Source: a virus
Lineage: Duplodnaviria > Caudoviricetes
Length of the DNA: 64,000 bases
Virus record (IMG/VR): IMGVR_UViG_3300027333_000001
Direction: 5' to 3' (one strand)
Each line of letters starts with the position of its first letter. Within the stretch, counting starts at the first letter, position 1. Made by a program: the position numbers and the translations under genes. The notes beneath the pieces are model-generated. The model was not told the origin of the DNA and did not search any database. It saw nothing but the letters and a program-made list of their open reading frames with translations. Positions 1,875 to 36,927 of the stretch are shown here, in pieces.

Positions 1875-2841
1875 ATTACTAGAAACCACAATCACATATA
1901 AACCATTCCATTATCCATGGGCTATGGAATATGCTGAAAAACATGAAAAAATCCATTGGGGTACTTGGGAAGCTAAACTTCAAGAAGATGTTAAGCAATG
2001 GAAAAATGGTGGATTGACAGATCAAGAGAGAAAACATATTACTTCGATTTTAAGAATTTTTACACAAAGTGATTGTGCAGTAGCAGGCAACTACTGTGAT
2101 CAATTTATTCCTGTGTTTAAGAATAATGAAATCAGAAATATGCTTTTAAGTTTTGCTAATAGAGAAGGCACTCATCAACGAGCATATGCTTTATTAAATG
2201 ATACTCTTGGTCTAGCTGAAGAAGAATATTCAAGTTTCTTATCATATACTGAAATGAAATCTAAAATTGAGTTCATGCAGGAAACAGGTATTCACAATGA
2301 CCATCCTACTTTAAAAGCTATTGGTACTTCACTTGCTCAATCTGTATGCAATGAAGGTATGTCTTTGTTCTCAGCTTTTGTTATGTTATTAAATTACCAG
2401 CGATTTGGCAAAATGAAAGGTATGTGTGAAATTGTTGAATGGAGTATTCGTGATGAATCACTTCATGTAGAGGCAATGACTAAATTATTTCAAACCTTTT
2501 GTGAAGAAAATCCTAGAGTAGTAAATAATGACTTGAAAAAGCAAATCTACACTAACTTTACAAGAGCAGTAGAACTTGAAGATGCTCTTGTAGATTTGAT
2601 TTATGAGAATGATGAGAGTGTGATTTGTACTCTTAAAGGTAAAGATATTAAAACCTATATTAGATACCTTGCAGATAGACGATTATTACAGCTTGGACTT
2701 AAACCACAATTTAATCAAAAAGAAAATCCTTTGGAATGGTTGGATTGGATTATTAGTGGAGATAGCTTTAAGAACTTTTTTGAAGGTGTTGTGACAGATT
2801 ACAATGCAAGTGGAATGACAGGTGAATGGGGTTGGGATTAA
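1867..2841 (+). CDS. nrdB: Ribonucleoside-diphosphate reductase class Ia beta subunit
   Basis: Di-iron motifs FTQSD, REGTH, NEGMSLF, RDESLH and C-terminal NFFE...TDY. Start moved to ATG 1867 on RBS spacing. Confidence 0.93.
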   Translation: MSKLLETTITYKPFHYPWAMEYAEKHEKIHWGTWEAKLQEDVKQWKNGGLTDQERKHITSILRIFTQSDCAVAGNYCDQFIPVFKNNEIRNMLLSFANREGTHQRAYALLNDTLGLAEEEYSSFLSYTEMKSKIEFMQETGIHNDHPTLKAIGTSLAQSVCNEGMSLFSAFVMLLNYQRFGKMKGMCEIVEWSIRDESLHVEAMTKLFQTFCEENPRVVNNDLKKQIYTNFTRAVELEDALVDLIYENDESVICTLKGKDIKTYIRYLADRRLLQLGLKPQFNQKENPLEWLDWIISGDSFKNFFEGVVTDYNASGMTGEWGWD

Positions 2842-3929
2842 GATTTTAAATAGATAACATACTCGCAATATTTCCAATTCTTAATTCTTTTAATACCTAC
2901 AATTTTAGCTGATGTAGGCTCTGCTAAAACTTCATAATAAATTGCCCACGGATCACCCATGTAATGCGAATGAATATAATCTAGTGTTGGTCTTGCATCT
3001 AAGGCAATATCTTCTTTAGGTGGTCTTACCCAAATAAGCAGAATACTGCCACCATAAACAACTTCATGTTCAGGATACCTATAGCTGTCAACAGCATCTT
3101 TTAAAGAAGACCAGCTTTTAATGCCACGAACAAGTATTTTAAAATATCTTTTAGCTTTCTCACTTAAATCTTTTTCTAAAATAACTTCTTCTTTACTGCC
3201 ACAAGTGGTTTCAAAAGAATCTTCTAGTTCAGAATAAAAAAGTTCATTCACTAATGCTCTATACAGATAATGGTATTGACCTTTAGGAAACCTATTACCA
3301 ATCTCTTTAATTCTCTTAATAGAAGAGAATGTGTGTTTATTAAAAGTTTGGTGTCCTTTTAAAGAGTACAGAAATCTTAAATCGTCTATGGATAAAAATT
3401 CGCTTTGTTCATATTCTTCATCATCATCACTAGGATGAATAAGTGATTTCAATTTTAAAAAAAGATTTTTCTCAGGTTGTTTTTCTATTTTTGTACCCCA
3501 AGAAATCCATGAAGGTACTTCAGATAAAAGACCTTTCAAAGTGTTAGATGATACACTTCCATCATAATAATAGTCTGTCCATTTATAGTTATATGTCGAT
3601 CCATTTTTAGACACTACTAGAAGATACATATTACCTAATGGTGGATTGATAGGTTTTAAGACACAGGCAAAATAGCTATCATGTGCTATGCAATAACCAC
3701 CTTCTACAATTTCATCATTTTTGATACCAAAAACTTTACCTCGACCATCTCTAAATTCAGAACAATATTGTTCTGTCCAGCTATTAAGATCTCTTTCTGC
3801 TCTTGATAGTCTTGGATATTTCTTTTTTAGATCACTATTTGTCTTTAGGAAATCTAACTCAAAAAAATCATCACCATAAGTTTCTTCTATTATTTCTTTA
3901 AATTTATTAAATAATGTTATATCTGACAT
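2838..3929 (-). CDS. Hypothetical protein with possible C-terminal R-S-E ADP-ribosyltransferase-like domain
   Basis: 363-aa ORF with SD. LYRAL...SWSS...YEVL in ART-like order; the domain call is inference only. Confidence 0.55.
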   Translation of the reverse strand: MSDITLFNKFKEIIEETYGDDFFELDFLKTNSDLKKKYPRLSRAERDLNSWTEQYCSEFRDGRGKVFGIKNDEIVEGGYCIAHDSYFACVLKPINPPLGNMYLLVVSKNGSTYNYKWTDYYYDGSVSSNTLKGLLSEVPSWISWGTKIEKQPEKNLFLKLKSLIHPSDDDEEYEQSEFLSIDDLRFLYSLKGHQTFNKHTFSSIKRIKEIGNRFPKGQYHYLYRALVNELFYSELEDSFETTCGSKEEVILEKDLSEKAKRYFKILVRGIKSWSSLKDAVDSYRYPEHEVVYGGSILLIWVRPPKEDIALDARPTLDYIHSHYMGDPWAIYYEVLAEPTSAKIVGIKRIKNWKYCEYVIYLKS

Positions 3930-11970: not shown

Positions 11971-12605
11971 TCACATTAGGTTTAGATCCATCATTAAGAG
12001 CATTTGGTTGGACTTTAATAAATGACAATGCAGAAATTATGGACAAAGGTTTATTAGGCACAGATGCTGATATGATCTTTGTAGAAAGATATATGTATTT
12101 AAGACAGGAAGTTTTAGCTTTAATACATAATATCAAAACTCAATATCCAAATGAGAACTTAACAATGGCAGTGGAATCACCATATTTTAATGACTTGTTT
12201 TCTGAAGGTATGTATGGTCTTTTCTTATATGTAAATGAAGCTATTAAGTTAGGCGAAGTAGATGTTATGTTTTTATCACCATTACAGGTAAAGGCTCATG
12301 CACATAAATATTTAGGTAGACCAAAAGGCTGGAAAATGCAAAAATCAGATATGGTTTTAGCCTGTAAAAAAGCAAATCCAAATGTTAAGAAACTTAATAA
12401 CCACCAAGCAGATGCCTATTGGGTAGCTAGAACAGGACAAAGGTTTTGGAAATTTGTAAATGAGATTATTACAGATGCAGATTTAGATGATGTAGAGAAA
12501 AGTCAGTTTGCTAGATTAGATTTAAATAAAGCAGGACAGGTAAAAAGCAAAGGCATCATGTATAAAGAAGATGATCGTTTTTTTAGGTGGTCTTTAAAAA
12601 GTTAA
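11967..12605 (+). CDS. ruvC: RuvC-like Holliday junction resolvase
   Basis: LGLDPSL, MAVESPY, PLQVK and NNHQADAY catalytic pattern. Confidence 0.75.
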   Translation: MITLGLDPSLRAFGWTLINDNAEIMDKGLLGTDADMIFVERYMYLRQEVLALIHNIKTQYPNENLTMAVESPYFNDLFSEGMYGLFLYVNEAIKLGEVDVMFLSPLQVKAHAHKYLGRPKGWKMQKSDMVLACKKANPNVKKLNNHQADAYWVARTGQRFWKFVNEIITDADLDDVEKSQFARLDLNKAGQVKSKGIMYKEDDRFFRWSLKS

Positions 12606-12661
12606 TAAATTATTTATCTAATATTCTTTTGTAGATTTTCTTTCTACAAAGGACTAAAAAA

Positions 12662-13555
12662 ATGTTAAAGTCACAACAATTAAATGCTTTAGTAAAAGCA
12701 TCCTATGTTCATCCACAAGGACATAAATTAAGAAAAGCCTGTTATAACTACATGATGCTCTCTTCAAGAAGAGCAAATGCAGGTATGACATTTGAAGAAA
12801 TGTTGCCAATGATTCAAGAATTGCCATTAGAGCAACAAGCACAGATCAAAGAAAGTATTATTAAAGCAAGTCTTAAACTTGATGTAGATAAGATCACTAA
12901 TTATGTCAAAGCACATGGTGGCAATACTGTAGCAAATTTCTTTCAAAGTGAAGATATTTCTATGAAAGAAATTTTAACTACCAAAGTACCTGATGCAATT
13001 GCATCAGGTTTGAAAACACTAACAAAGTCTTTATTAAAGACTTTGGTTTTTTGTGTAGATGCTATTACTTTAAGAAATAGTGATACATATCTTGAAGAAA
13101 TGGATGAGAAATACGATTTGCATTTATCCTATAATTATGAGCATAAGGCATTGGTCTTTTTGCCAAGATTATTAGTTCTATTTGCTTTTGCATTATTTAT
13201 GAAAAATGTTGCTAATGGTACATCATCTGTGTTTGAATTTTTAGATACCTATGGTCAATATGCAGGTGCAGTATTTACACCTACATTTGTCTTATCAGCA
13301 TTATATGCTTCTTTCAATCCTAGAAGTGCAATGAAATTTTTAGATAGGATGTATAGTGCTATCTCTACACCTTTAACTACATCATGGGATATTATTTCAC
13401 ATTTCTATGAAAATCTAGGTGTAGAATCGGGTATTTCTTGGATTTCAAGTAAACTAAAAAACATTTGGAATACTATTATTGGCGAAACTTCAGAAGATAT
13501 GTTCGCCAATGCACAATTTAAAACAGCATATCTACAAGCATTAAAATCTTATTAA
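12662..13555 (+). CDS. Hypothetical protein with predicted transmembrane segments
   Basis: Hydrophobic stretches (LVFLPRLLVLFAFALFM; GAVFTPTFVLSALYA); basic-x-A motifs near the N-terminus (KASY, RRANA). Confidence 0.55.
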   Translation: MLKSQQLNALVKASYVHPQGHKLRKACYNYMMLSSRRANAGMTFEEMLPMIQELPLEQQAQIKESIIKASLKLDVDKITNYVKAHGGNTVANFFQSEDISMKEILTTKVPDAIASGLKTLTKSLLKTLVFCVDAITLRNSDTYLEEMDEKYDLHLSYNYEHKALVFLPRLLVLFAFALFMKNVANGTSSVFEFLDTYGQYAGAVFTPTFVLSALYASFNPRSAMKFLDRMYSAISTPLTTSWDIISHFYENLGVESGISWISSKLKNIWNTIIGETSEDMFANAQFKTAYLQALKSY

Positions 13556-13559
13556 AAAT

Positions 13560-13588
13560 TTGCCAATTCCTTATTAAAATCCTATAAG
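13560..13588 (+). promoter_or_regulatory. Sigma70-like promoter of recA
   Basis: TTGCCA-N17-TATAAG. Confidence 0.6.
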
Positions 13589-13623
13589 ATGAGATACCTT
13601 TCAAGTCCATAGGAGTTATCAAT

Positions 13624-14850
13624 ATGGCAAAAGCTAACCTTTCCAAAATCGCAGGTGTTTTAAAAGCATCTCTTAAAGAAGATTTTGTAGTTCAACTTGA
13701 CGATTCTAAAGTCAATTCCACAACACCCCATGTTTCCACAGGATCAATCGCTTTAGATTATCTTATTGGTGGCAAAGAAAATGAAAGAGGTGTTAAACCA
13801 TGCCCCGGACTTCCTAGAGGTCGTATTACTAATATCTATGGCAATGCAGGTGCAGGTAAAACTACTATTGCATTACAAACTGCCGCCCAAGTTTGCCAAG
13901 CTGGTGGTACTGTTCTTTACATCGATTGGGAAAATGAAGTAGAACCTAAATATGCTCAAGCATTAGGTGTACCTGTCACTGATAAAGATAAATTCATGCT
14001 CGTTCAACCTGATACTCTTGAAACAGGTTTAAAGTACATGGCTATGTTTGCAAGAGAAGGTGTTGATCTTATTGTGATTGACAGTGTTGGCGCCGCAGTT
14101 CCACAAGCTATGTTTGAAAAACAAGATGGTGAAACACAAATGGCAGTTGGTGCTAATGCTCGTGTATGGTCTGTTTATCTTCCTAAACTAAAAAATATCA
14201 TTGCAAAGCATAATACCTGTGTGATTGGTATTTCTCAATTAAGAGAAGCTATTGGTGGCATGACATCCTTTGCGGGTCCAAAAACTACACCACAAGGTGG
14301 TAAAGCATGGCAGTATTACTCAACCTTGCAAATCAAATTATCTGTTGTTCAAAAAGAAAAAGGCAAACTTTGGGATGGTCTACAAGGTAAGATGATTGAA
14401 ACTGTAACAGGTGCAGTAGTAAGGGCACATTTAGATAAATGTAAAGTATCTGATAGTGTTCACCATGAAGTAGATTTCTTCTTAATGAGTGGCAAAGGTG
14501 TAGATAATGAAAGAACTATTATTGATCTAGCTATTAATAGTGGTGTGATCAGTAAAAAAGGTGCTTGGTTCTCATGGCAATCACCAACAGGTGAATTAAG
14601 ATCTCAAGGTCTTGCAGGTTTTAAAGAACAATTACAAGCTATGGATGGTGGTCTAGTCGCTTTGTTTACTCAAGTTAAACCTTTCATCTCTCAAAATAAA
14701 GATGGTGGTGTTGCTCCAGCAGATGCAACAGCAACTGCATCAGAAGAAAAAGCACCAGCTAAAAATAGCAAGCTAGATAAAATGGCAAGTGCTAACCTTG
14801 ATGATATGTTTGGTGATGATGATGAAGAATTTTTTGATGATGAAGAATAA
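13624..14850 (+). CDS. recA: RecA recombinase
   Basis: STGSIALD, GNAGAGKTT, YIDWEN, IVIDSV, ISQLRE, TPQGGKA and KGAWF; acidic tail; no intein. Confidence 0.93.
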   Translation: MAKANLSKIAGVLKASLKEDFVVQLDDSKVNSTTPHVSTGSIALDYLIGGKENERGVKPCPGLPRGRITNIYGNAGAGKTTIALQTAAQVCQAGGTVLYIDWENEVEPKYAQALGVPVTDKDKFMLVQPDTLETGLKYMAMFAREGVDLIVIDSVGAAVPQAMFEKQDGETQMAVGANARVWSVYLPKLKNIIAKHNTCVIGISQLREAIGGMTSFAGPKTTPQGGKAWQYYSTLQIKLSVVQKEKGKLWDGLQGKMIETVTGAVVRAHLDKCKVSDSVHHEVDFFLMSGKGVDNERTIIDLAINSGVISKKGAWFSWQSPTGELRSQGLAGFKEQLQAMDGGLVALFTQVKPFISQNKDGGVAPADATATASEEKAPAKNSKLDKMASANLDDMFGDDDEEFFDDEE

Positions 14851-14911
14851 ATAAATGAGATAAAACTTGCTCAATATCTTATAATATAAAACAATCATAA
14901 GAGCAGGTTTA

Positions 14912-16312
14912 TTGAAAATGAAAATAAAAGTAGAGAACTTTCAATCTATAAGTAAAGCAGAAATAGAAGTAAAAGGTCTAACTGTAATCACAGGTCAAAA
15001 TAATACAGGTAAATCTGCTTTAGCTAGATCAATCATAGGTGCATTTACAAATTTAAGAGGAAATGCTTTTGTTAGACAAGGTACTCAAGTTGCTAAAGTA
15101 GATATATCCTTTGATGATGGTAATCGTCTTATTTGGTCTAAAGGTAAAAATACAAACCAATATGAGATCAATAGTAAACTCATTCAGAAAGTAGGCAGTG
15201 ATACACCTGATGAAGTTTTAAATTTAGGTGTTAAAGCAGTCAATGTAGATGGCAAAGAAATTCATCCACAATTTGCTAAACAATTTCAACAAGTGTTTTT
15301 AATAGATTTGCCACCATCATCATTAGCAAGTGCCTTATCCGATGTAGATGTTATTCAAAAGCTAGAACAAGCTACTGCTAGTTTAAGAACAGATATAAAA
15401 AATCAAAACTCTTTAAACAATGCGAAAAGAGATGAATATAATAAAGAGAAGATTAAGCTAGAACAATTTGAAGGACTAGATGAACTTGAATTACAAGCAC
15501 AGCGAATAGAATTATTAGAAACACAAATAGAGGCAGTGGCAACCAAGTTATCCGTCTTGCAGGAAATTAAGATTAAGAAAGATAAGCTAGAAAAGATAGT
15601 CTTAATACTTAATGATTTATTACATATCTTATTCACAAAAGACAGTGAAGAGATTTTAGTATTAGATGAGAAGATCCGAACAGCGAATGGAATTAAAGTT
15701 AAGAGAGATGTTTTAGAAAACATATTAGATTTAAAATGTGATTTAGATGAGATTTCATTTTGTGAATTGAATGTAGACCTTATGCAGATGGCAAACCAAT
15801 TAAAAGATATGGTCAAAATCTCAAAGGTAAAAAATGTTTTAACGAAAGTGTTGGATTTAGAAAATGATTTGGTAAATACAGGTTTAACAAATATAAGCAT
15901 AGAACAAGTCATAGATAGGTTATCCGTGCTTGAATCTAATCAAAGACAAAGAAAGGTCTTAAAAGAAATGTTAAACAATCAATCCGATTTAAACTCAATT
16001 TTCTTTAGTGATTTTGATCTGAACCTAGTGGATCATTTAGAAAACTTAGTATCTTTAAGAAAGCAAAGAACAAAGGTAAAGTTATTGACTTCTATTTTAG
16101 AAGTAGGTTTAAAGAATATTCATATTAGTGATATGCCAGCATTAGACGATTCTTTATTTGAGATCAAAAAACAAAAGGAAATGTTATTTAAAGATATTCA
16201 AAATATAAATGAAGATTTGATAAGTGTTTCAGAGGAATTAGAAAATTTAAATGAACAGATAGGTGATACCTGTCCATTATGCCAAAGTGGTTTACATGAT
16301 CATTTGGCTTAA
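14912..16312 (+). CDS. Rad50/SbcC-like SMC ATPase, N-terminal half (Walker A, coiled coil, CxxC hook)
   Basis: KVENFQS, ITGQNNTGKS, Q-loop, long coiled coil, ending at CPLC; no Walker B or signature motif. Confidence 0.8.
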   Translation: MKMKIKVENFQSISKAEIEVKGLTVITGQNNTGKSALARSIIGAFTNLRGNAFVRQGTQVAKVDISFDDGNRLIWSKGKNTNQYEINSKLIQKVGSDTPDEVLNLGVKAVNVDGKEIHPQFAKQFQQVFLIDLPPSSLASALSDVDVIQKLEQATASLRTDIKNQNSLNNAKRDEYNKEKIKLEQFEGLDELELQAQRIELLETQIEAVATKLSVLQEIKIKKDKLEKIVLILNDLLHILFTKDSEEILVLDEKIRTANGIKVKRDVLENILDLKCDLDEISFCELNVDLMQMANQLKDMVKISKVKNVLTKVLDLENDLVNTGLTNISIEQVIDRLSVLESNQRQRKVLKEMLNNQSDLNSIFFSDFDLNLVDHLENLVSLRKQRTKVKLLTSILEVGLKNIHISDMPALDDSLFEIKKQKEMLFKDIQNINEDLISVSEELENLNEQIGDTCPLCQSGLHDHLA

Positions 16313-16506: not shown

Positions 16507-17076
16507 CTATTTAAATAAGTGTTTCATAAGGGATTTTTTAAGTTCTTTATATTTTTCTAATTTTTCTTTTGTCTGCTCAATAAGATTATCTAGATCAGAT
16601 AAGCAAGTGGCTATTTTATGCTGTTCTTGAAAGATAGGTGTTTGAATCGCTATTATACTAACATCTTTTTTTTGAAGATTTGGTATCCCCGTACCTACTT
16701 TTCTTGACATAATATCTTTTTCGATATGCTTCAAAAATTGAAAAAGGTATTGAGTGTCAATATTTGATTTAATATTTAATAGTGTATAGCAATGACCACC
16801 TGCCCAAAAATCTTCTCTCATAAGATTTACAAATCCTGTAGATGCACCACCTTCACTAATCGTAATCGTATTAGCTGGTGTGTTATAAGAATGGTAGTAA
16901 CCTGATGGTTCTACACCACCATTTATAAATTTATATCTATTTACTATGCTTTGTTTTTCAAATAACTTTGTTTTATTGATTTGATCGCCTTTGATAATAC
17001 TTCCAACATCACCAAGTTTCTTCTCTTCCCAATCAGGAAAATTACTACCATCATTCCTCTTAAACCTTAATGTCAT
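16507..17076 (-). CDS. hsdS: Half-size type I restriction-modification specificity subunit (single TRD)
   Basis: LRFKRNDGSNFPDWEEKKLGDV N-terminal conserved region, one TRD, PIFQEQHKIATCLSDLD and KKSLMKHLF C-terminal region; about 190 aa. Confidence 0.85.
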   Translation of the reverse strand: MTLRFKRNDGSNFPDWEEKKLGDVGSIIKGDQINKTKLFEKQSIVNRYKFINGGVEPSGYYHSYNTPANTITISEGGASTGFVNLMREDFWAGGHCYTLLNIKSNIDTQYLFQFLKHIEKDIMSRKVGTGIPNLQKKDVSIIAIQTPIFQEQHKIATCLSDLDNLIEQTKEKLEKYKELKKSLMKHLFK

Positions 17077-17081
17077 ATTAC

Positions 17082-18533
17082 TCAATCCTCTAAAAGAATA
17101 TCTAAACCTAATTCTACAAGATGTTCATTCACTTTACTTGTTAAAATCTTTAAGTCTTTATTGATCTGATTGATCTGTTTTAAAGTATCTACTAAATCAA
17201 TCTCTTCTTCTTCCTCAATATTACTTATATACCTTGAGATATTTAGATTAAAATCATTATTTTTAATCTCATCTAAACTAGCCAAATGAGAATATTTAGC
17301 TATCTCTTTTCTTCCTGCATAAGTGTCTATGATTTTTTCTATATGCTGATCAGTGATAAGATTGGTTTTCTTTTCTTTAATGAAATCATTAGATCCATCT
17401 ATGAAAAGAATATCTGTATTTTGCCTATTCTTTTTTAAGACTAAAACACAAGTACCAATACTTGTATTTGTAAAGAGATTTTCAGGTAATCCTATAATAG
17501 CATCTACCAAATTCTCTTCTATTAAATGCTTTCTGATCTTTTCTTCACTAGCACCACGAAATAAAACACCATGTGGCAAAAGCACAGCTGAAATACCATC
17601 ATCTGAAAGGTGGTGTGCTGAATGCTGGACAAAAGCAAAATCTGCTTTTGTTTTAGGTGCTAATAGACCACCAAATCTAATATCATTATTAGGAGTCCAT
17701 GATAAACTATATGGTGGATTAGCAACGATTGCATCAAACTTTAAATTTAAATGTAAAGGTTGCTTTAAAGTATCACCATGCTTAATATCAAAATTATTTA
17801 AATGAACATTGTGCATAACCATGTTCATTCTACATAGGTTATATGTAGTCTTCATAATTTCTTGACCATAGAAATTATCCACAGGTATCTCTTTGGCAAC
17901 ATTTAAAAGTAAAGAACCTGATCCACAGCTTGGATCATATACATTTCTTAAAGATGTCTTATTTAAACAAACAATTTTAGATAAGACTTTGGAAACTTGT
18001 TGTGGTGTGTAGAACTCACCAAAATTTCCACCATTAAAATACTCATAGACATCACCTAAAATATCTTTTTCACCTGTCAATGATGGCATCTTATTCAAGT
18101 TATTTAAGATATGTAAAAGATCACTTTTACCAAGAGATGAGAGATTGATATTCTCAAATAAAGAACTGTCTATTTCTTTAAACACATTCTTTAAATCATC
18201 TACAATGTCTAAACCTTTATTTGCTTTTTCTACTAGAAAGCTAAATAAGAGATCTTCATTTAAGAAGAAACCTAAATCTTTAAAAGCATCTTCTTTAGAT
18301 GAGTATGTCACCATCTTTTCAGAAATATGTTTATAGAAGATAAAAGCTAAAATGAAATCTCTAAATTCCATATCAGATAATGAACCTCTAATAGAATATG
18401 CAATATCTAATAGCTTTTCTACTTTGATTTCTTCTGCATTAGATAATGCTGATTTAGTAGCAGGTTTAGATAATGCAGGTGTTTCAGATTTAACTTCTAG
18501 TGTTTCATCTTCAAATAGAGAAACTTGTTTCAT
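17082..18533 (-). CDS. hsdM: Type I restriction-modification N6-adenine methyltransferase subunit
   Basis: GEFYTPQQVS, VYDPSCGSGSLL, YGQEI, VANPPY, LPHGVLFRG and FNLNISRY; extra N-terminal MKQVSLF plus linker. Confidence 0.92.
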   Translation of the reverse strand: MKQVSLFEDETLEVKSETPALSKPATKSALSNAEEIKVEKLLDIAYSIRGSLSDMEFRDFILAFIFYKHISEKMVTYSSKEDAFKDLGFFLNEDLLFSFLVEKANKGLDIVDDLKNVFKEIDSSLFENINLSSLGKSDLLHILNNLNKMPSLTGEKDILGDVYEYFNGGNFGEFYTPQQVSKVLSKIVCLNKTSLRNVYDPSCGSGSLLLNVAKEIPVDNFYGQEIMKTTYNLCRMNMVMHNVHLNNFDIKHGDTLKQPLHLNLKFDAIVANPPYSLSWTPNNDIRFGGLLAPKTKADFAFVQHSAHHLSDDGISAVLLPHGVLFRGASEEKIRKHLIEENLVDAIIGLPENLFTNTSIGTCVLVLKKNRQNTDILFIDGSNDFIKEKKTNLITDQHIEKIIDTYAGRKEIAKYSHLASLDEIKNNDFNLNISRYISNIEEEEEIDLVDTLKQINQINKDLKILTSKVNEHLVELGLDILLED

Positions 18534-19216: not shown

Positions 19217-20182
19217 ATGATTAAACTCGTTTGGCGAACAGATGTGCATTTTAGTGATTACACACCATCTAAAAGAACAGGCAATTGGACGGATGATGTT
19301 TCAAAGAAATTAGAATGGATTGGCAAATATACACATGATCATAATATAGATGCAGTTATAGATGGTGGTGATTTCTTTGATATTAAAACACCATCTAAAA
19401 ACTCACATTCTCTTGTAGGTAGAACAGCTAAAATCCATAAAGGTTATGCTTGTCCTGTCTATACTCTTGTAGGCAACCACGATGTCAAATATGGCAATAT
19501 AGACTATATAGATGAACAGCCTTTAGGTGTCTTATTTAATGCAGGTGTCTTTGATCAGTTTGGATATGATAAAGAAATTATCTTTGAGAAAGACAATGTA
19601 AAAGTAAGACTTGTAGGTATTCCATATCATGGTACTTCTTACGATTGGGATTTAATCCGATCTATAAAGAAAGGTGATGAAGATTATTTATTAGTAGCCT
19701 GTCATTTATTAGCCAGCGAAAAAGGTGGTGTAGGTGCTATGTATGAAGGTGAAGATATAGTGCCTTATAGTGATTTATTACATCAAGGTGTAGATGGTTG
19801 GTTCTTTGGTCATTGGCATAAGGATCAAGGCATAGTTATTAAAGATAAAACTACAATCGTAAATACAGGTAGCTTAACTCGTGGTGCTTTACATTTAGAT
19901 GATTTGGAAAGAAATCCGTGTATTGTAGAAGTGATTGCAGATAAACAAGGCATTTCATTTAATAGGATTGACTTACCTGTAAGAGATGTCTTAAGTGCTT
20001 TTAAGGTAGAGGAAACAATAGCTAAAAGAGAAAATAAAGATAAGATGGAAGAGGTTGTAGAAAAGATGAGATCACTGTCTATTGAAAATCATGGCATGAG
20101 TTTAAGAGATAGGATTATGCAAGTAAAAGATGTAGAAGATATAGTGAAACAAATCGCAGTAGAATATTTAGAAAAAATATAA
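19217..20182 (+). CDS. Mre11/SbcD-like metallophosphoesterase nuclease
   Basis: TDVH, GGDFFD, VGNHD, GHWH and NTGSLTR motifs. Confidence 0.88.
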   Translation: MIKLVWRTDVHFSDYTPSKRTGNWTDDVSKKLEWIGKYTHDHNIDAVIDGGDFFDIKTPSKNSHSLVGRTAKIHKGYACPVYTLVGNHDVKYGNIDYIDEQPLGVLFNAGVFDQFGYDKEIIFEKDNVKVRLVGIPYHGTSYDWDLIRSIKKGDEDYLLVACHLLASEKGGVGAMYEGEDIVPYSDLLHQGVDGWFFGHWHKDQGIVIKDKTTIVNTGSLTRGALHLDDLERNPCIVEVIADKQGISFNRIDLPVRDVLSAFKVEETIAKRENKDKMEEVVEKMRSLSIENHGMSLRDRIMQVKDVEDIVKQIAVEYLEKI

Positions 20183-21273: not shown

Positions 21274-21552
21274 ATGACAAATGAAGAAATTAAAGTTTTG
21301 ATTGATAAGAAAACAGAACTTGAAAGAAAAAAAGAAAGACTTTTAGGTAAAATGGAAAGTGCAAAAAATGCTTTATCTGAACTAGATGATCGTTTAATCG
21401 CAATGAACATTAAACCAAGTCAGTTAGAAGAAGAAATTCAAAAACTAACTGATCTAAAAGATGAAATGCTAACCACCTTAAATAAAGAAGTTCAAGATGC
21501 AGAACTTTCTCTCAACAGAATAGAACAACGAATCAAGGAGATTTCACAATGA
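21274..21552 (+). CDS. Small coiled-coil protein
   Basis: Heptad-rich, about 92 aa, coupled to the clamp gene by an ATGA overlap. Confidence 0.6.
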   Translation: MTNEEIKVLIDKKTELERKKERLLGKMESAKNALSELDDRLIAMNIKPSQLEEEIQKLTDLKDEMLTTLNKEVQDAELSLNRIEQRIKEISQ

Positions 21553-22736
21553 AAATTGTAGTATCAAAAAACGATTTAAAAGAAGCATTAAACCTTGCTC
21601 AAAATGTATTAGGATCAAGTGCAGATATTACATCTCACTTTGTATTTGAAATTGATGATAAAAAGAATGTTAGTATTCTTTCATGCGAACCACCTAGACT
21701 ATTCTCTAAAGTACCTTTAACAGGATCAACTGCTGAAGGTGAAGGTCAATTTACAGTAGACGGTAAAAGACTTTTACTTGCAGTAAGCAATATTGCAGAT
21801 ACAGAAACTTTAACCTTTACTGAAAATCAAGGTACTGTTAAGTTAGCTACTACTAAAGGTACTTTGACTTTTTCATCTCTTGATCCATCTTCTTTCCCAA
21901 GCTGGTTATCTCAATATGCAGAAGCAAAAGAAGTTAAAAAGATCGCAAGCGAATTATTGCATGAAGGTTTAAATGCAGTTAAGAATTTCATCTCTGTAGA
22001 TGAAACTAGAAGACCTGAATTATGCCAAGCATCCATTAAAGATGGTTTGCTTTATGCAACAGACAGCTTTTCTATGTGTCTTGTAAAAAATCCTGTGTTT
22101 TCAGATTTTGAATTGAAAGTACATTTCAAGGATTATCCTGCACTCTTAAAATTCTTAAAAACTCATCAAGGCTATGATGTTACTTTAAGCGAAACAGATA
22201 AAGCATATTTCTTTACTGCTGAAGGCTCTTTATTAGGTTTGATGAAAACACCATTTACACCTTTCAAGATTCCGGGCAATTATGCACAGTCATTTGATTG
22301 GACACCAAGACGAGTTTGGATTTTAAATAAACAAGATTTACTACAATCTATTAACTTTCTAGGTGCAGGTGCTGATAAGAATGATTTCATTATGGCATTT
22401 GAACATCCTGAAGGTTCAATGACAGAACCAACATTGTCTATGGATTCATCTAATAGCAATGATCCATTGGTAGTAAGTATTAAACAAGCTATTCCTGAAA
22501 CAGAAGCATTAGATTTCCCAATGAAGATGTATTTTGACAGTGTGAAAGCAGAAGATAAGAAAGAAGATGTTGCCAAATTCAAGTTCAATTTCTTATACCT
22601 AAAGAAAGCAATTGAGAATTTAGGAAATGAAGTAGTCTTAGGCAGTACAAAAGAAGGTACTTATGGATATATGCTTTTAAGAGATAAGACAGCTTTAGAT
22701 ACAGATATTGTATCTATTATTGCATGGGTGAGATAA
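21549..22736 (+). CDS. dnaN: DNA polymerase sliding clamp (beta/DnaN-like)
   Basis: MKIVVSKNDLKEAL start, DPSSFP, SVDETRRPEL, YATDSF, FNFLYLKKAI; clamp-like size. Confidence 0.75.
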   Translation: MKIVVSKNDLKEALNLAQNVLGSSADITSHFVFEIDDKKNVSILSCEPPRLFSKVPLTGSTAEGEGQFTVDGKRLLLAVSNIADTETLTFTENQGTVKLATTKGTLTFSSLDPSSFPSWLSQYAEAKEVKKIASELLHEGLNAVKNFISVDETRRPELCQASIKDGLLYATDSFSMCLVKNPVFSDFELKVHFKDYPALLKFLKTHQGYDVTLSETDKAYFFTAEGSLLGLMKTPFTPFKIPGNYAQSFDWTPRRVWILNKQDLLQSINFLGAGADKNDFIMAFEHPEGSMTEPTLSMDSSNSNDPLVVSIKQAIPETEALDFPMKMYFDSVKAEDKKEDVAKFKFNFLYLKKAIENLGNEVVLGSTKEGTYGYMLLRDKTALDTDIVSIIAWVR

Positions 22737-26710: not shown

Positions 26711-27217
26711 ATGAATAAATGGAAAGCTGAAAAAATCGATCAAGATGTGATCGAATATGTTGTAGGAAATTGCCATCCTAAATTGGTAGATATTCTACAT
26801 GAAATCCAAATCGTCTTTAAAGACAAAGCAGGCAAGACAGGTGGCAAATATAATTTAGGTAAAATCCTAAAAGCCCCGGGTATCCTTACTGTACTTGGTG
26901 ATAAAGAATATCAATTTATTCTCGAAATCGGATATGATCTATGGTCTAGCTTAGACAACAGCCACCAAATTGCTCTTGTTGATCATTTACTTTGCCATAT
27001 CGTTGCTGAAGAAAATGAACAAAATGGTGAAATGACTTATACCATGCGAACACCTGATGTGTCTTATTTCTCTGAAGAAATTGATCGCAATGGTAATTGG
27101 AAATCCGAAGTCTATGCTTTATTTGAAGAAGATCAAAAGAAGAAAGATGAAGATGAAAAAGCTAAGAAAGCTAAAAAAGGCAAGCAAACATCTTTAATTG
27201 AAGATACTGATGATTAA
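26711..27217 (+). CDS. Phage metallopeptidase-like protein with variant zinc motif (HLLCH)
   Basis: LVDHLLCHI where HELxH is typical, followed by PDV..F.EEI.RNG; charged tail. Confidence 0.6.
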   Translation: MNKWKAEKIDQDVIEYVVGNCHPKLVDILHEIQIVFKDKAGKTGGKYNLGKILKAPGILTVLGDKEYQFILEIGYDLWSSLDNSHQIALVDHLLCHIVAEENEQNGEMTYTMRTPDVSYFSEEIDRNGNWKSEVYALFEEDQKKKDEDEKAKKAKKGKQTSLIEDTDD

Positions 27218-32719: not shown

Positions 32720-33868
32720 CTAAAACAAGCTAACCATCTTTCTCTTATCACAATATATACTGCCTGCTACCACTACTCTCTCTTCTTTCAAAATAGACAA
32801 AACCCCAATCTCATATCCACTCTCTAAATATCCTATTAGCTTTTTATATAAGGCATCTTTGTTTTTAGCATTTTTGAATTTTATGCTTTTTTCAATATGT
32901 AGTTTTTTATTATATAAGGCTATATAACCTTGAGTAAATGTCCATCCTGCTTTTAAATGTGATAACACATCATTTGTGTGAACTGTTTTCTTTTCACCTG
33001 TCAATAGAAAGATCATTTCTTTATTCGCTTTACATTCTTTCATTGCTTTACAATGCTTTTCTTTAACTTCAGGTCTTGAATGTCTTTCTTTCAATGATTT
33101 ACTTTTCTTTTCTTTAAATTCAGGTCTTGACCAATTTTCTTTCTGTGCTTTACTCATCTTTTCTTTAACTTCAGGTCTTGCCAAAGTTTCTTTCAATGAT
33201 TTACTTCTCTTTTCTTTAAATTCAGGTCTTGACCAATTTTCTTTAGATGATTTACTCATCTTTTCTTTATATTCGGAACTTGAATGACTTTCTTTCTGTA
33301 CCTTACTTTGCTTTTCTTTAAATTCAGGTCTTGACCAATTTTCTTTGGATGCTTTACTTTTCTTTTCTTTATATTCAGGTCTTGACCACATTTCTTTAAG
33401 TGCTTTACTCAGTTTCTCTTTAATTTCAGGTCTTGCACAAGCATCTTTAAGTGCTTTACTTTGCTTTTCTTTGCTTTCTTCACTTAAGCCACCACCACCA
33501 AATCTGCCACCTGTCTTTAAATTATAGCATACCTTTAATTCATCTCTATATCTCTTAATTACATCTTCTGTGATGAGTAATCCTTCTGCCAAATAAGCAT
33601 CCTGTGCAGTAGTAAAGAATTGCAATCTGTAATGTTGAAAGTTTAAATATCCGTGTTTCTTAATAGCATTTTTAAATGCTATGCCTGATCCAATATAGCC
33701 ATCATTAAGGTCTTTTGTTGTGTGCTTACCTAGATAGAATTTATTGTTAATGGTGTTAATAGTGAGATAGGTAAAATGATAGAAACCATCTGGATCAGTA
33801 AAGGGAATGACAGAATTAGGACTATAAGTATTAAGAATTTGATTAGTAAAGGTTTGAGCATCACTCAT
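32720..33868 (-). CDS. Free-standing GIY-YIG (Seg-like) homing endonuclease with NUMOD3-type repeats
   Basis: FTYLTINTINNKFYLGKH...YIGSG, catalytic-type E in AYLAE, CYNL; about eight 17-aa RPExKEKxSK repeats. Confidence 0.85.
   Translation of the reverse strand: MSDAQTFTNQILNTYSPNSVIPFTDPDGFYHFTYLTINTINNKFYLGKHTTKDLNDGYIGSGIAFKNAIKKHGYLNFQHYRLQFFTTAQDAYLAEGLLITEDVIKRYRDELKVCYNLKTGGRFGGGGLSEESKEKQSKALKDACARPEIKEKLSKALKEMWSRPEYKEKKSKASKENWSRPEFKEKQSKVQKESHSSSEYKEKMSKSSKENWSRPEFKEKRSKSLKETLARPEVKEKMSKAQKENWSRPEFKEKKSKSLKERHSRPEVKEKHCKAMKECKANKEMIFLLTGEKKTVHTNDVLSHLKAGWTFTQGYIALYNKKLHIEKSIKFKNAKNKDALYKKLIGYLESGYEIGVLSILKEERVVVAGSIYCDKRKMVSLF
33040..33480 (-). repeat. Tandem 51-nt / 17-aa repeats in the endonuclease DNA-binding region
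   Basis: Recurrent TTCAGGTCTTG(A/C) on the + strand every ~51 nt. Confidence 0.85.
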
Positions 33869-33918: not shown

Positions 33919-36510
33919 TTACATCTTATTTACAGTTTCAATGAATTTTTTAGCAATCGTTTGAATACCTTTACGAGTAGTAGCAACACCTGTCACTAAA
34001 GCACACATTTCAGCAAACCATTCAAGAACATCTTTCATCGCATAATTAGAAGGACAGACAATAGTTCTAGCAAGGCTGTCTTCAGAAATTTCTTGTTTTT
34101 GTTTAGTTTCAAGGTTTTGGAAAACATAAACAGCACCTTCACCTCTTTTACCTTTAATTTCTATGCAAACACTATCATCTTCTGTAGCATATCGTACTAC
34201 AAAATGTACTTTGTATTCAGAAAGAAGAGATCCTATGACAGGTAAAGAATCTTTAATACAAGAATCCTTTGTAGTCATTTTAAAAAGATTGATCATTTCT
34301 TGATTTTTCAAAAAGTTAGGTAACTCTTCATTATGGAATTTATGTCCAAACTCATGCACAATATCAGAAATTCTTTCTTTAGAATCTTTTTTTCTATATG
34401 GATCAGTGTAGAAAGCAATAATACCTGTATCTACTTCATAAGATGCGGCGGCATCACTAGAATCTGCTAATCCTCGTTTTTTAAGATCTGCATATTTACC
34501 AACAAAGACACGATCTCTAAGAACATTTTTAAATTTAGTAAGTGGTGAGTTCTTAATAATGTGGATTGCTCTTTCAAAATCATTTTTAATAAGTAGCAGT
34601 GTTTTTTCATTAATCTCTGAAATAAAGATAAGTTTAAAATTACCTAACTTAAGGATAACTTCAGATACTTCTCTTGCACCTTCTGATTCAATATATTCAT
34701 TGTTTAAGTTTAAATCAATAGGATATTTAGCACCTCTCCATAATCTAATGCTTGGATCATAATATCCAAATTTCCATTCCTTTTCTCTTTTCTCTAATTT
34801 AGAGATTTCAAATTGGATATTGTTTTTCTCTTTTAATTCTTCTTCTTTGTAATTATTAGGATACTTATTCATCTTATAAAGAAGTTGAGTTAGTTTAGAG
34901 ATTTGAAAAATAGTAGCCTCTTTAGATAATTCCTGTGGCAATTTACCTGAACCATAACAATTATCTGATTTCATCCAATTACTAAAGGTATATCCATGTG
35001 CATGGATTGTGCCATCTTCATTTAAAGCCTGATGTCTAAGACAGGCTTGGCAAGTTCCATATGCAGGATGGAACTTCAAAATAAATTTAATCTTTTCATT
35101 TAAAGGTAATTCAGCAGGTGGTATTAATTCTTCTTCTTTATATGTACTAACAAAATTAGGAAGTTCAATAGTTTTTCTTCTAACATCAGTAGTTAATATA
35201 TCTATGCCACTCTTACTACCAAAAGGATGGAAAATATATCCTTGATTGGCAGTGAAAGATGCTTCAAGTGTAAAATAGATATCAAAATCTAGACTGCCAA
35301 TCATGTCTATTTTCATAGTGAATAAACTTGACCATGCTTTTCTTTGTATATCTCTAACCATCTTGTTTTTTAAACTATCTGCAATATCCTTTCCTTTTGC
35401 GATTTCAAGATCTATCTCAAAAACAATCTTTTTGTTATCATCACTTAGTTTATATTTATAGTAGTCTATTAAGTGTTCATACTGTCCTGTTGAATAAATT
35501 ATATCTTGTGTGTATCCACGAATAATTTGAACAATACCTGTTGTAGAAATCACCTTCTCTTTTTCTTCTTTTTTAGTAGGTGCAGGTTTAGTTTTTTTAC
35601 CTGCACTAGGTTTTTCGTCTGTACTGACTGATGATTCTGTATGAAATAAATTTGAATCAGGTTGTGTTCCGATAATATTAAGTTGAGGTTTGTAATTAGA
35701 CAGGTGTTCATAAAAAGATCTAAATTTCATTAATGAAAATTGTGAAACATCGGAGTATTCTTTAATTTCACCGATTGTAAGATTTGCATAATCAGTAAAA
35801 AGACTGTTAATTGCAGTAGACCATGAAGAATCAGGAACATTCCAGCTATCTTCAAAAAGACTTACATCAATCTTCGGAATAAAAATATTAGAACCTTCTG
35901 TATTACCATAAAAGTATCTACCATTTAAAGCTATCTGTTCAAATTGATTGTTTGCTAATTCTTCATCACCTGCCCTTGCAACATATGAAAGAAGAGGTTT
36001 AGGTATGATTGCAGGTTCTGTTTTAAAATTAAAAGCTGATCTTTTTGATTCACTTTTTATCCAATAACTATCTGTGTTACTTGCATTTAACTGAAATCGT
36101 TCATATTCTGATGTGAAGTATTTTTTCTGTTCAGCAGTCAACTCTAGTACACCAAGATCTTCTTTTTTACCTTCTAAAAAGAGTTCAAAACTCAAGGCTT
36201 TTCTTTCAGGTGTCATATTTTTTAATGGTACAGATTTAGATGTAACAGTACCTAAAGGTGATTTAGATGTTTTATATTTTTTATCTCTATAAAATTCATC
36301 ATATTGAGGTACAATTACAGGTGTTTCCAACAATGGATACTCATTCAATTCTTCTATTTTTTTAGAGATGGCAGATTTGGCTCTTGTTAGTGGAAGTAAT
36401 TGATATCGTCCAAAACAATCTGCTAAAAACAAACGAAATCCTTTATTCGCAAGGATTATATCTTTAAGTTTCATTTTATCATCAAAAATGAGAGTAGATT
36501 TTTTTTTCAT
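33919..36510 (-). CDS. Large protein with a Zn-finger-like motif and C-terminal zincin (HExxH) domain
   Basis: CQAC...HAHG...CYGSG; IVHEFGHKFH; C-terminal SNYAMKDVLEWFAE. Confidence 0.65.
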   Translation of the reverse strand: MKKKSTLIFDDKMKLKDIILANKGFRLFLADCFGRYQLLPLTRAKSAISKKIEELNEYPLLETPVIVPQYDEFYRDKKYKTSKSPLGTVTSKSVPLKNMTPERKALSFELFLEGKKEDLGVLELTAEQKKYFTSEYERFQLNASNTDSYWIKSESKRSAFNFKTEPAIIPKPLLSYVARAGDEELANNQFEQIALNGRYFYGNTEGSNIFIPKIDVSLFEDSWNVPDSSWSTAINSLFTDYANLTIGEIKEYSDVSQFSLMKFRSFYEHLSNYKPQLNIIGTQPDSNLFHTESSVSTDEKPSAGKKTKPAPTKKEEKEKVISTTGIVQIIRGYTQDIIYSTGQYEHLIDYYKYKLSDDNKKIVFEIDLEIAKGKDIADSLKNKMVRDIQRKAWSSLFTMKIDMIGSLDFDIYFTLEASFTANQGYIFHPFGSKSGIDILTTDVRRKTIELPNFVSTYKEEELIPPAELPLNEKIKFILKFHPAYGTCQACLRHQALNEDGTIHAHGYTFSNWMKSDNCYGSGKLPQELSKEATIFQISKLTQLLYKMNKYPNNYKEEELKEKNNIQFEISKLEKREKEWKFGYYDPSIRLWRGAKYPIDLNLNNEYIESEGAREVSEVILKLGNFKLIFISEINEKTLLLIKNDFERAIHIIKNSPLTKFKNVLRDRVFVGKYADLKKRGLADSSDAAASYEVDTGIIAFYTDPYRKKDSKERISDIVHEFGHKFHNEELPNFLKNQEMINLFKMTTKDSCIKDSLPVIGSLLSEYKVHFVVRYATEDDSVCIEIKGKRGEGAVYVFQNLETKQKQEISEDSLARTIVCPSNYAMKDVLEWFAEMCALVTGVATTRKGIQTIAKKFIETVNKM

Positions 36511-36571
36511 AGAGCATATCCTTTTTTTAATTTAATCACTCATTAAAAAAGGATATGTATAAATAATTTAT

Positions 36572-36865
36572 TTATTTACTTGCCATATCACTAGCTTGTA
36601 CTGCCATATCCACAATAACCATATCACCAGCTACAGACATATCAGTAGTAGATGCCATATCAATAATACTGCTATCACTTTCAACTGCCATATCACTTTC
36701 ATTGCCTGCTGTCATATCAATACTAGACAAAGCAATATCTGTAATAATCATATCGATTAAAGTAGCATCTGTAGATTGCATATCTGATTGAGTAGCAGGT
36801 GTTTCTTTCTTTTCTTCACCACCACAGGCAGTAAGAATAAGCATAACGAGTAGTAAAGTTTTCAT
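36572..36865 (-). CDS. Small lipoprotein with Asp-Met repeats
   Basis: Signal peptide with lipobox LTAC followed by nine DM dipeptides in an acidic low-complexity region. Confidence 0.75.
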   Translation of the reverse strand: MKTLLLVMLILTACGGEEKKETPATQSDMQSTDATLIDMIITDIALSSIDMTAGNESDMAVESDSSIIDMASTTDMSVAGDMVIVDMAVQASDMASK

Positions 36866-36927
36866 AATAAACTCTCTTTATATATTTGATGTTTAAGTTT
36901 ATTAAAAGATTAGATATAAAAGAAATA

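Follow-up and report, generated by a model that had tools for sequence, protein, structure and literature searches.

The 64,000-nucleotide stretch considered here (the window) is one strand of IMG/VR virus record IMGVR_UViG_3300027333_000001 (Duplodnaviria; Caudoviricetes), from a giant freshwater phage. Its minus strand carries hsdM, encoding a type I DNA methyltransferase subunit, and a half-size hsdS (Table 1). We focused on the extreme N terminus of this phage HsdM, which resembles a beta-clamp-binding peptide, on a sliding clamp encoded in the same window, and on the termini of other DNA-modifying enzymes in this and related phages. Beyond approximately residue 40, the sequence is that of a standard type I HsdM (Pfam PF02384 N6_Mtase, 7.9e-101; PF12161 HsdM_N, 4.8e-6), and its translation contains NPPY and DPSCGSGS motifs. 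Ahead of this core, translation of the minus-strand open reading frame (ORF) gives a protein start of MKQVSLFEDETLEVKSETPALSKPATKSALSNAEEIKVEKLL, beginning MKQVSLFEDE, of which the N-terminal peptide is MKQVSLFEDETL. The beta-clamp pentapeptide of Dalrymple, QL[S/D]LF, is known from clients such as Pol II, Pol III alpha, Pol IV, UmuC, Hda, MutS/MutL, and some transposases. QVSLF agrees with it at Q1, S3, L4, and F5 and is likewise terminal; Q..LF occurs six times among the window ORFs, near a terminus only in HsdM. The segment that follows the peptide (residues 8 to 38) was covered by no family profile in Pfam and PHROG scans and is probably flexible or disordered, judging from composition and indels only. 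An AlphaFold2 (AF2) model of the whole protein from a 5-row alignment was poor throughout, residues 1 to 38 included (predicted local distance difference test [pLDDT], 45).

The assignment of the start codon determines whether the peptide is part of the protein. The ATG at position 18533 is preceded by an AAGGA box 9 nucleotides upstream, and an alternative TTG three codons upstream of this ATG has unusable spacing. The next methionine is residue 55; since HsdM_N begins near residue 40, a start there would cut into this conserved domain, which argues against a start downstream of the motif. In the orthologues on two related contigs (P0005 and P0006; loci L006 and L008), an in-frame TAA stands immediately before the corresponding ATG, so that the peptide occupies residues 3 to 7 of the earliest possible N terminus. 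An earlier note on this DNA had read MKQVSLF from the ATG at 18533, followed by a linker of ∼30 residues and then the HsdM core, and had allowed for a true start downstream. Translation confirmed the reading and the position of the motif, the linker proved variable with HsdM_N following from about residue 40, and the TAA codons in L006 and L008 speak against the downstream start.

The peptide is conserved within a clade of phage HsdMs related to the window protein at 98% (P0003), 87% (P0004), and 55 to 58% (P0005 and P0006) identity. N termini in this clade read MKQFSLFEDE, MKQVSLFEDE, MIQNTLFDIE, and MTQDSLFDLE, which fit the pattern M-x-Q-x-[S/T]-L-F-[D/E]. Across the five clade members, which represent three lineages, M1, Q3, L6, F7, and E10 were invariant and position 5 was S or T, while the linker between the peptide and the first helix ranged from ∼6 to 31 residues, with indels of up to ∼22 residues and poor conservation. 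These lineages are syntenic jumbo-phage contigs bearing the clamp module.

Outside the clade, no N-terminal Q..LF was found in the 116 other listed HsdM homologues or in 77 metagenomic HsdM loci, and none of 149 HsdM cluster representatives carried it as an N-terminal extension, the sole QQQLF lying inside the conserved first helix. Searched with the phage-clade alignment, metagenomes yielded bacterial-type HsdMs only (42 to 49% identity), with no new clade members, and a scan of viral contigs returned distant methyltransferases only. Chromosomal HsdMs of Aliarcobacter and Arcobacter (∼48% identical) share the catalytic core, the HsdM_N domain, and the HsdS partner. However, they start at the first helix (M-x-E-x-K-K-x-L-E-Q-Q-L-W; also M-G-E-E-x-K-K-x-L-E-Q-Q-L-W), without peptide or linker, and the phage protein further differs from them in its shortened HsdM_N insert and in having no HsdR nearby. 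The proposals in the earlier note that the extension is phage specific and that the motif is conserved among phage homologues therefore both held: the bacterial HsdMs examined lack it, and Q-x-[ST]-L-F is kept in all five phage proteins while the linker varies.

The likely start of the partner gene hsdS is the ATG at 17076 (MTLRFK...); the L006 orthologue starts MTLRFKKEDGS. No HsdR-like gene was present among the annotated neighbors in the window or in L006 and L008. By this gene content, HsdM and the half-size HsdS are a restriction-less, modification-only M+S pair.

The phage clamp and the second methyltransferase

The protein proposed as the docking platform had no Pfam match at an E value of 0.01 and matched the PHROG annotation "processivity factor" (3e-20). 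Its AF2 model (pLDDT, 91) aligned with bacterial DnaN over the full length and all three domains in Foldseek (template modeling [TM] score, 0.75 to 0.83; E ∼1e-22), and a profile of its 26-member family reached Helicobacter pylori DnaN over domains I and II (E 1e-12). Judged by profile and modeled fold, the product is a divergent but genuine DnaN-type beta clamp. Of its 28 homologues, many lie on contigs of 250 to 320 kb; in related phages, clamp-loader-like genes and a family A polymerase are present as well. Cofolding the clamp with HsdM residues 1 to 40 gave a score of 0.38, but one unrelated control scored 0.56, which leaves docking neither strengthened nor weakened.

The second methyltransferase of the window, a protein of 946 residues, ends ...DIQTTEENTLF. 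Its three closest homologues (99, 84, and 55% identity) end ...QTTEENTLF, ...ETSQENTLF, and ...LNAQENTLF, and all of the 46 more distant homologues lack the tail, ending ∼10 residues earlier at a conserved helix. In these alignments, (Q/E)ENTLF-stop is a conserved, clade-specific extension. Two further proposals of the earlier note, a DnaN-like clamp close to hsdM and a C-terminal extension QTTEENTLF on the second methyltransferase, are thus borne out, the former by AF2 and Foldseek and the latter by conservation down to 55% identity within one clade. Neither hsdM nor the gene for the 946-residue methyltransferase occurs in five complete or near-complete records of related phages, the closest relative (clamp, 91% identical) among them.

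Table 1. Coordinates of the genes and peptides discussed, in the window unless a related locus is named
Feature	Position	Strand	Basis or remark
hsdM, type I N6-adenine DNA methyltransferase subunit, 483 residues	17082..18533	-	Pfam N6_Mtase and HsdM_N
Q-V-S-L-F, HsdM residues 3-7, candidate clamp-binding peptide	18513..18527	-	Translation and conservation
Linker, HsdM residues 8-38, acidic then Ser/Thr/Pro/Ala/Lys-rich	18420..18512	-	Joins peptide to HsdM_N domain
Half-size hsdS, one target-recognition domain	16507..17085	-	Pfam Methylase_S PF01420, 1.4e-30; abuts hsdM stop
HsdM-HsdS cassette and flanks	14912-16312, 16507-18533 (cassette), 19217-20182		Also L006, L008
Beta-type sliding clamp, DnaN fold, 395 residues, proposed docking platform	21549..22736	+	
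Type ISP/IIG-like methyltransferase with specificity domain, 946 residues	36928..39768	-	Pfam Type_ISP_C 2.1e-30, Eco57I, N6_Mtase
E-N-T-L-F end of the 946-residue methyltransferase	36931-36945	-	Within 10-residue C-terminal extension
Split N6_N4 methyltransferase pairs	L150/L159, L160/L151, L166/L158, L161/L152, L153/L167		Related phages
Two tandem ATPase-GNAT paralogues, 71% identical	L006 7672-8814, 8824-9942		phrog_11143; Pfam Acetyltransf_1
PX29 tail bearers	L103 (NC_023688.1) 36066-36950, 12471-15233; L097 1471-2649		
PhageMetallopep protein ending K-Q-T-S-L-I-E-D-T-D-D	26711..27217	+	Pfam PF18894, 1.4e-20
RecA-like recombinase, hydrophobic-acidic tail ...NLDDMFGDDDEEFFDDEE	13624..14850	+	Pfam RecA, 1.6e-45
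GIY-YIG/NUMOD homing endonuclease, 382 residues, ending K-M-V-S-L-F (32723-32737)	32720..33868	-	phrog_314, 4.5e-31

Terminal peptides on DNA-modifying enzymes of related phages

Related IMG/VR phages were found through the clamp, and matches to N6_N4 methyltransferases were located in nine of these clamp-encoding genomes. We scored a tail as Q..[LIMF]F or [STD][LIMF]F at most 5 residues from the stop. By this definition, 14 of the 17 ORFs that hold the C-terminal end of an N6_N4 methyltransferase bear a tail, of at least five types: QISIFDLF; GQVSLF; TQEYFF/SQEYLF; ISDMFG, LDMFGG, and ISSMFGE; and SSLFFYEG. The GQVSLF tail holds a pentapeptide identical to that of HsdM. As background, a tail was present in at least half of the members in 5 of 158 multimember ORF families located at most 10 kb from the clamp, and two of these five are themselves the methyltransferase and ATPase-GNAT families; composition alone predicts a tail on ∼1% of proteins. 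The enrichment on methyltransferases (Fisher p, 4e-14) is calculated over orthologues that are not independent, with a pattern defined after inspection. Even so read, the frequency of such termini on methyltransferases appears far above background. When C termini at most 10 kb from the clamp were profiled by position for [STD][LIMF]F, the last residue gave a modest peak (4 families versus ∼0.5 expected), and the signal was strong only with methyltransferases taken as a class.

The N6_N4 methyltransferases appear to be encoded in two parts, the N-terminal half (MIEIKIGDC...ICIGVKK) separately from the C-terminal half (MKDMIEYF...), with several copies per genome. In the split enzymes, the SIFDLF/QVSLF tail is found on the C-terminal half only and on none of the N-terminal halves.

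A second group of tailed enzymes lies directly upstream of HsdM in L006, a 272-kb relative. Here two tandem ATPase-GNAT genes end ...TPQQQSLF-stop and ...KYQQETLF-stop, and alignments to the members of this family in other phages end ∼20 residues before the L006 tails. Each protein is an ABC-like P-loop ATPase fused to a GNAT acetyltransferase, and the pair is flanked by an N6_N4 methyltransferase and HsdM. This family (phrog_11143) has members in many phages, frequently encoded next to methyltransferase or ParB-like genes, and is a candidate for an uncharacterized DNA-modifying enzyme.

A similar peptide was seen at the other end of the family A polymerase. In eight genomes, the extreme N terminus keeps x-x-D-[M/F]-[L/F] (MFADFF, MFDDFL, MFADML [twice], MFNDML, MLMDML, MNFLDAL, and MDFGDML). 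The genes at L141, L142 to L145, and L176 to L178 have the conserved start M-F-A-D-[MF]-[LF]-E-x-L-x-R-P. This peptide resembles QADMF, an internal clamp motif in Escherichia coli Pol III alpha; a clamp-motif-like peptide at the N terminus of Pol A would be unusual. In one genome (G008), a polymerase beginning MDFGDML occurs together with three methyltransferases whose ends are ISDMFG, LDMFGG, and ISSMFGE, a likeness that we regard as suggestive, docking of the polymerase peptide on the clamp being likewise putative.

An independent parallel was found under a different type of clamp. In Aeromonas phage PX29, an unrelated T4-like phage with a clamp of the gp45 type, the polymerase gp43 ends ...KTSLTDLFGDW, and an annotated Mom-like DNA modification protein ends ...DKGLTDLFGDF, nearly the polymerase tail; a PX29 homologue of the ATPase-GNAT proteins ends ...SGLDFMFGI. 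The hydrophobic-acidic C termini of T4-family gp43, gp55, and gp33 are established, interchangeable gp45-binding epitopes on variable linkers (PMC2988020; PMC7892883). That modification enzymes of PX29 share a polymerase-like tail under a different clamp type is what a model of clamp tethering predicts. The Mom-like and ATPase-GNAT proteins of PX29 are candidate gp45 clients outside the polymerases and transcription factors. In addition, a distant relative encodes a sigma-70 region 4-like protein (L139, 16252-16935) that starts M-D-S-I-F-E-E (or MAFMDSIFEE) and is reminiscent of the clamp-docking, sigma-like factor gp55 of T4.

Genome setting and other proteins with similar termini

The window has a G+C content of 31% and also carries genes for ribonucleotide reductase, a RecD-like helicase, RecA, split Rad50/Mre11-like genes, a Cas4-like nuclease, and tail fibers; its relatives are uncultured phage contigs of 250 to 350 kb. 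The HsdM(-HsdS) cassette lies between the N-terminal half of the Rad50-like gene and the Mre11-like gene, at the same spot in three diverged phage lineages. The P0005 and P0006 contigs are syntenic with the window, with the clamp a few kilobases from HsdM. The cassette is missing from that spot in L010 to L013 and in the closest IMG/VR relative. The nearest cellular HsdMs are those of Aliarcobacter, Arcobacter, and Sulfurovum, and the best solved relatives of the clamp are H. pylori DnaN structures; these sequence affinities point to a Campylobacterota host or gene donor.

Several proteins with other predicted functions have similar ends. The tail of the PhageMetallopep protein is a near copy of K-Q-V-S-L-F-E-D-E in HsdM, and its orthologues end QLDLLLGEEEQD, SLIEDIFG, SLIEEIFGK, and EDLFDEE. 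This protein may likewise be a client of that hub; the eukaryotic SprT-like protein Spartan binds PCNA. Orthologues of the RecA-like recombinase end ELDDLF[KN] and SLDDLFSD..., and because hydrophobic-acidic tails are common in recombinases, the RecA-like tail is weak evidence. The MVSLF end of the homing endonuclease was dropped as evidence, its sole homologue (L132) ending differently; a relationship of this 382-residue protein to the ATPase-GNAT proteins of L006 was also considered and rejected, as it is a GIY-YIG homing endonuclease (phrog_314).

A 363-residue protein encoded in the window (2838-3929, minus strand) starts M-S-D-I-T-L-F, in the same register and of the same class as the HsdM peptide; it had no Pfam or PHROG match and no homologue in the five related phage records. 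In the closest relative, a 378-residue protein of repeated helix-turn-helix/excisionase-like units (L104, 18897-20033) ends KKRLKQDSLF, and a 304-residue homologue of it ends ...KKRLQ, without DSLF. Finally, the KQLNLF end of a further HsdM (P0243; L014, 10001-11458) was rejected as evidence for beta-clamp binding, since its neighbors (aS21, EF1-beta, and PTH2) place it on an archaeal chromosome. This HsdM was seen in hundreds of samples, and its tail could be PCNA interacting or due to chance.

Interpretation of the terminal peptides

Taken together, the conserved peptide and the recurrence of similar termini are probably best explained by a terminal clamp-binding motif that tethers phage DNA-modifying enzymes to the replisome. 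From the sequences we infer clamp binding, the identity of the clamp, coupling to replication, and a benefit against restriction. In such a model, M-K-Q-V-S-L-F of HsdM would dock as a short linear motif of the class that binds bacterial beta clamps (Q-L-[S/D]-L-F), carried on a flexible linker of ∼30 residues, and the peptide would enter the hydrophobic cleft between domains II and III of the phage DnaN-type clamp or possibly that of the host clamp. An HsdM2-HsdS2 enzyme would then be held by one or two N-terminal peptides on a clamp loaded on phage DNA. Sitting on clamps at the phage fork or left behind it, the methyltransferase would methylate new phage DNA during synthesis. The same device would operate at the C terminus of the 946-residue methyltransferase, most N6_N4 methyltransferases, and the two ATPase-GNAT enzymes, the clamp thereby serving as a tool belt for DNA-modifying enzymes besides the polymerase. 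More tentatively, and short of considering it probable, we suggest that replication-coupled DNA modification may be a general strategy of clamp-encoding phages. Nearly every DNA-modifying enzyme, from type I, N6_N4, and type IIG-like methyltransferases to ATPase-GNAT and Mom-like enzymes, would then carry the docking peptide of the resident clamp (QxSLF-like with DnaN-type and LTDLFG-like with gp45-type clamps), gained independently at either terminus, and the marks would be written before host nucleases act.

Several observations weigh against tethering to the clamp. Docking is itself a step that we infer. The HsdM clade is small, with five sequences from three lineages, and motif position 2 departs from the canonical L, being V, F, N, or D; in the 946-residue methyltransferase of the window, E stands where two relatives have Q. 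The tail counts on methyltransferases include orthologues under a motif definition set post hoc, and all of the related phages were found via the clamp, so that the sample consists of clamp encoders only. A proposed contact between the T4 alpha-glucosyltransferase and gp45 was not reproduced in a 2025 preprint (10.64898/2025.12.06.692756). Moreover, the tails on the RecA-like and metallopeptidase proteins could serve another hub, for example SSB (the single-stranded DNA-binding protein) or a mediator protein.

This last point bears on the idea that the peptide truly serves in docking but has a different partner, either the host beta clamp only or a phage recombination or replication protein (SSB, mediator, or helicase) recognizing hydrophobic-acidic termini, which we regard as unlikely. 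Because the closest relatives of the phage clamp are Campylobacterota DnaN proteins, the host clamp could share its motif specificity, and T4-type UvsX, like the recombinases and the metallopeptidase family here, ends in an acidic-hydrophobic tail. However, the peptide fits the clamp consensus and stands at either terminus (N-terminal in HsdM and Pol A, C-terminal in the other methyltransferases), as is typical of clamp motifs; SSB-tail-type contacts require a free C-terminal carboxylate. The PX29 modification enzyme, moreover, copies the tail of the polymerase, and T4-family polymerase C termini are a known clamp epitope (PMC2988020).

It is very improbable that the segment is a targeting or processing signal, such as a degradation tag or a capsid-targeting sequence that would bring the methyltransferase into virions, as in P1 DarB and the T4 internal proteins. 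Virions of jumbo phages hold many packaged proteins, and the acidic HsdM segment lies at the N terminus and can be separated from the core, but peptides of the same class stand at the C termini of other methyltransferases, the enrichment falls on DNA enzymes and not virion proteins, and the orthologues (MIQNTLFDIE and MTQDSLFDLE) share no conserved prohead-protease L/I-x-E site. We give still less credence to a neutral, lineage-specific add-on that resembles a clamp motif by chance. Five-residue motifs are short, as the six occurrences of Q..LF among the window ORFs illustrate; yet the motif is invariant across orthologues of 55% identity in which the adjoining linker has diverged and changed in length, and its frequency on unrelated methyltransferase families is ∼80 times that of the background.

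Tethering of methyltransferases to the phage clamp would have precedents among other clamp clients. Like the bacterial beta-clamp clients, the phage proteins combine a Q-x-[S/D]-L-F-type peptide in a terminus or loose segment with a DnaN-fold clamp, and placement at the extreme N terminus is as in Hda; in contrast to those clients, the bearer here is a candidate methyltransferase client, the clamp is phage encoded, and position 2 is not Leu. Phage Mu reportedly uses the beta clamp for late transcription. The likeness to the gp45 clients of T4 lies in unrelated phage proteins that have in common a short, exchangeable peptide at a terminus, borne on a variable linker, for use with the phage's own clamp. 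However, gp45 is trimeric whereas the DnaN fold is dimeric, the peptide differs, and the known T4 clients are the polymerase, ligase, and transcription factors. In eukaryotes, the maintenance methyltransferase DNMT1 is brought to replication sites by a PCNA-interacting protein (PIP) box in its N-terminal region that binds PCNA. DNMT1 thus offers the case of a DNA methyltransferase recruited through a short clamp-binding peptide, which in phage HsdM is putative, but in another domain of life, with a different clamp and enzyme family, and for inheritance of the mark rather than the presumed self-protection from restriction. Full-text literature searches found no methyltransferase described as a beta-clamp client. 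What is new here, at the level of prediction from sequence, is methyltransferases as a client class of the clamp tool belt and the N-terminal placement of the peptide on a type I HsdM.

The timing by which phage DNA reaches full modification ahead of cleavage by host restriction enzymes is an old problem. If the model is correct, a docking peptide would be a simple physical answer to it and the equivalent, in bacteria and phages, of DNMT1 bound to PCNA, and DNA-modifying enzymes would join the list of beta-clamp clients. Short natural peptides would then report the binding specificity of divergent phage clamps, and the signature of a methyltransferase with a clamp tail would predict which phage enzymes act at the replication fork.

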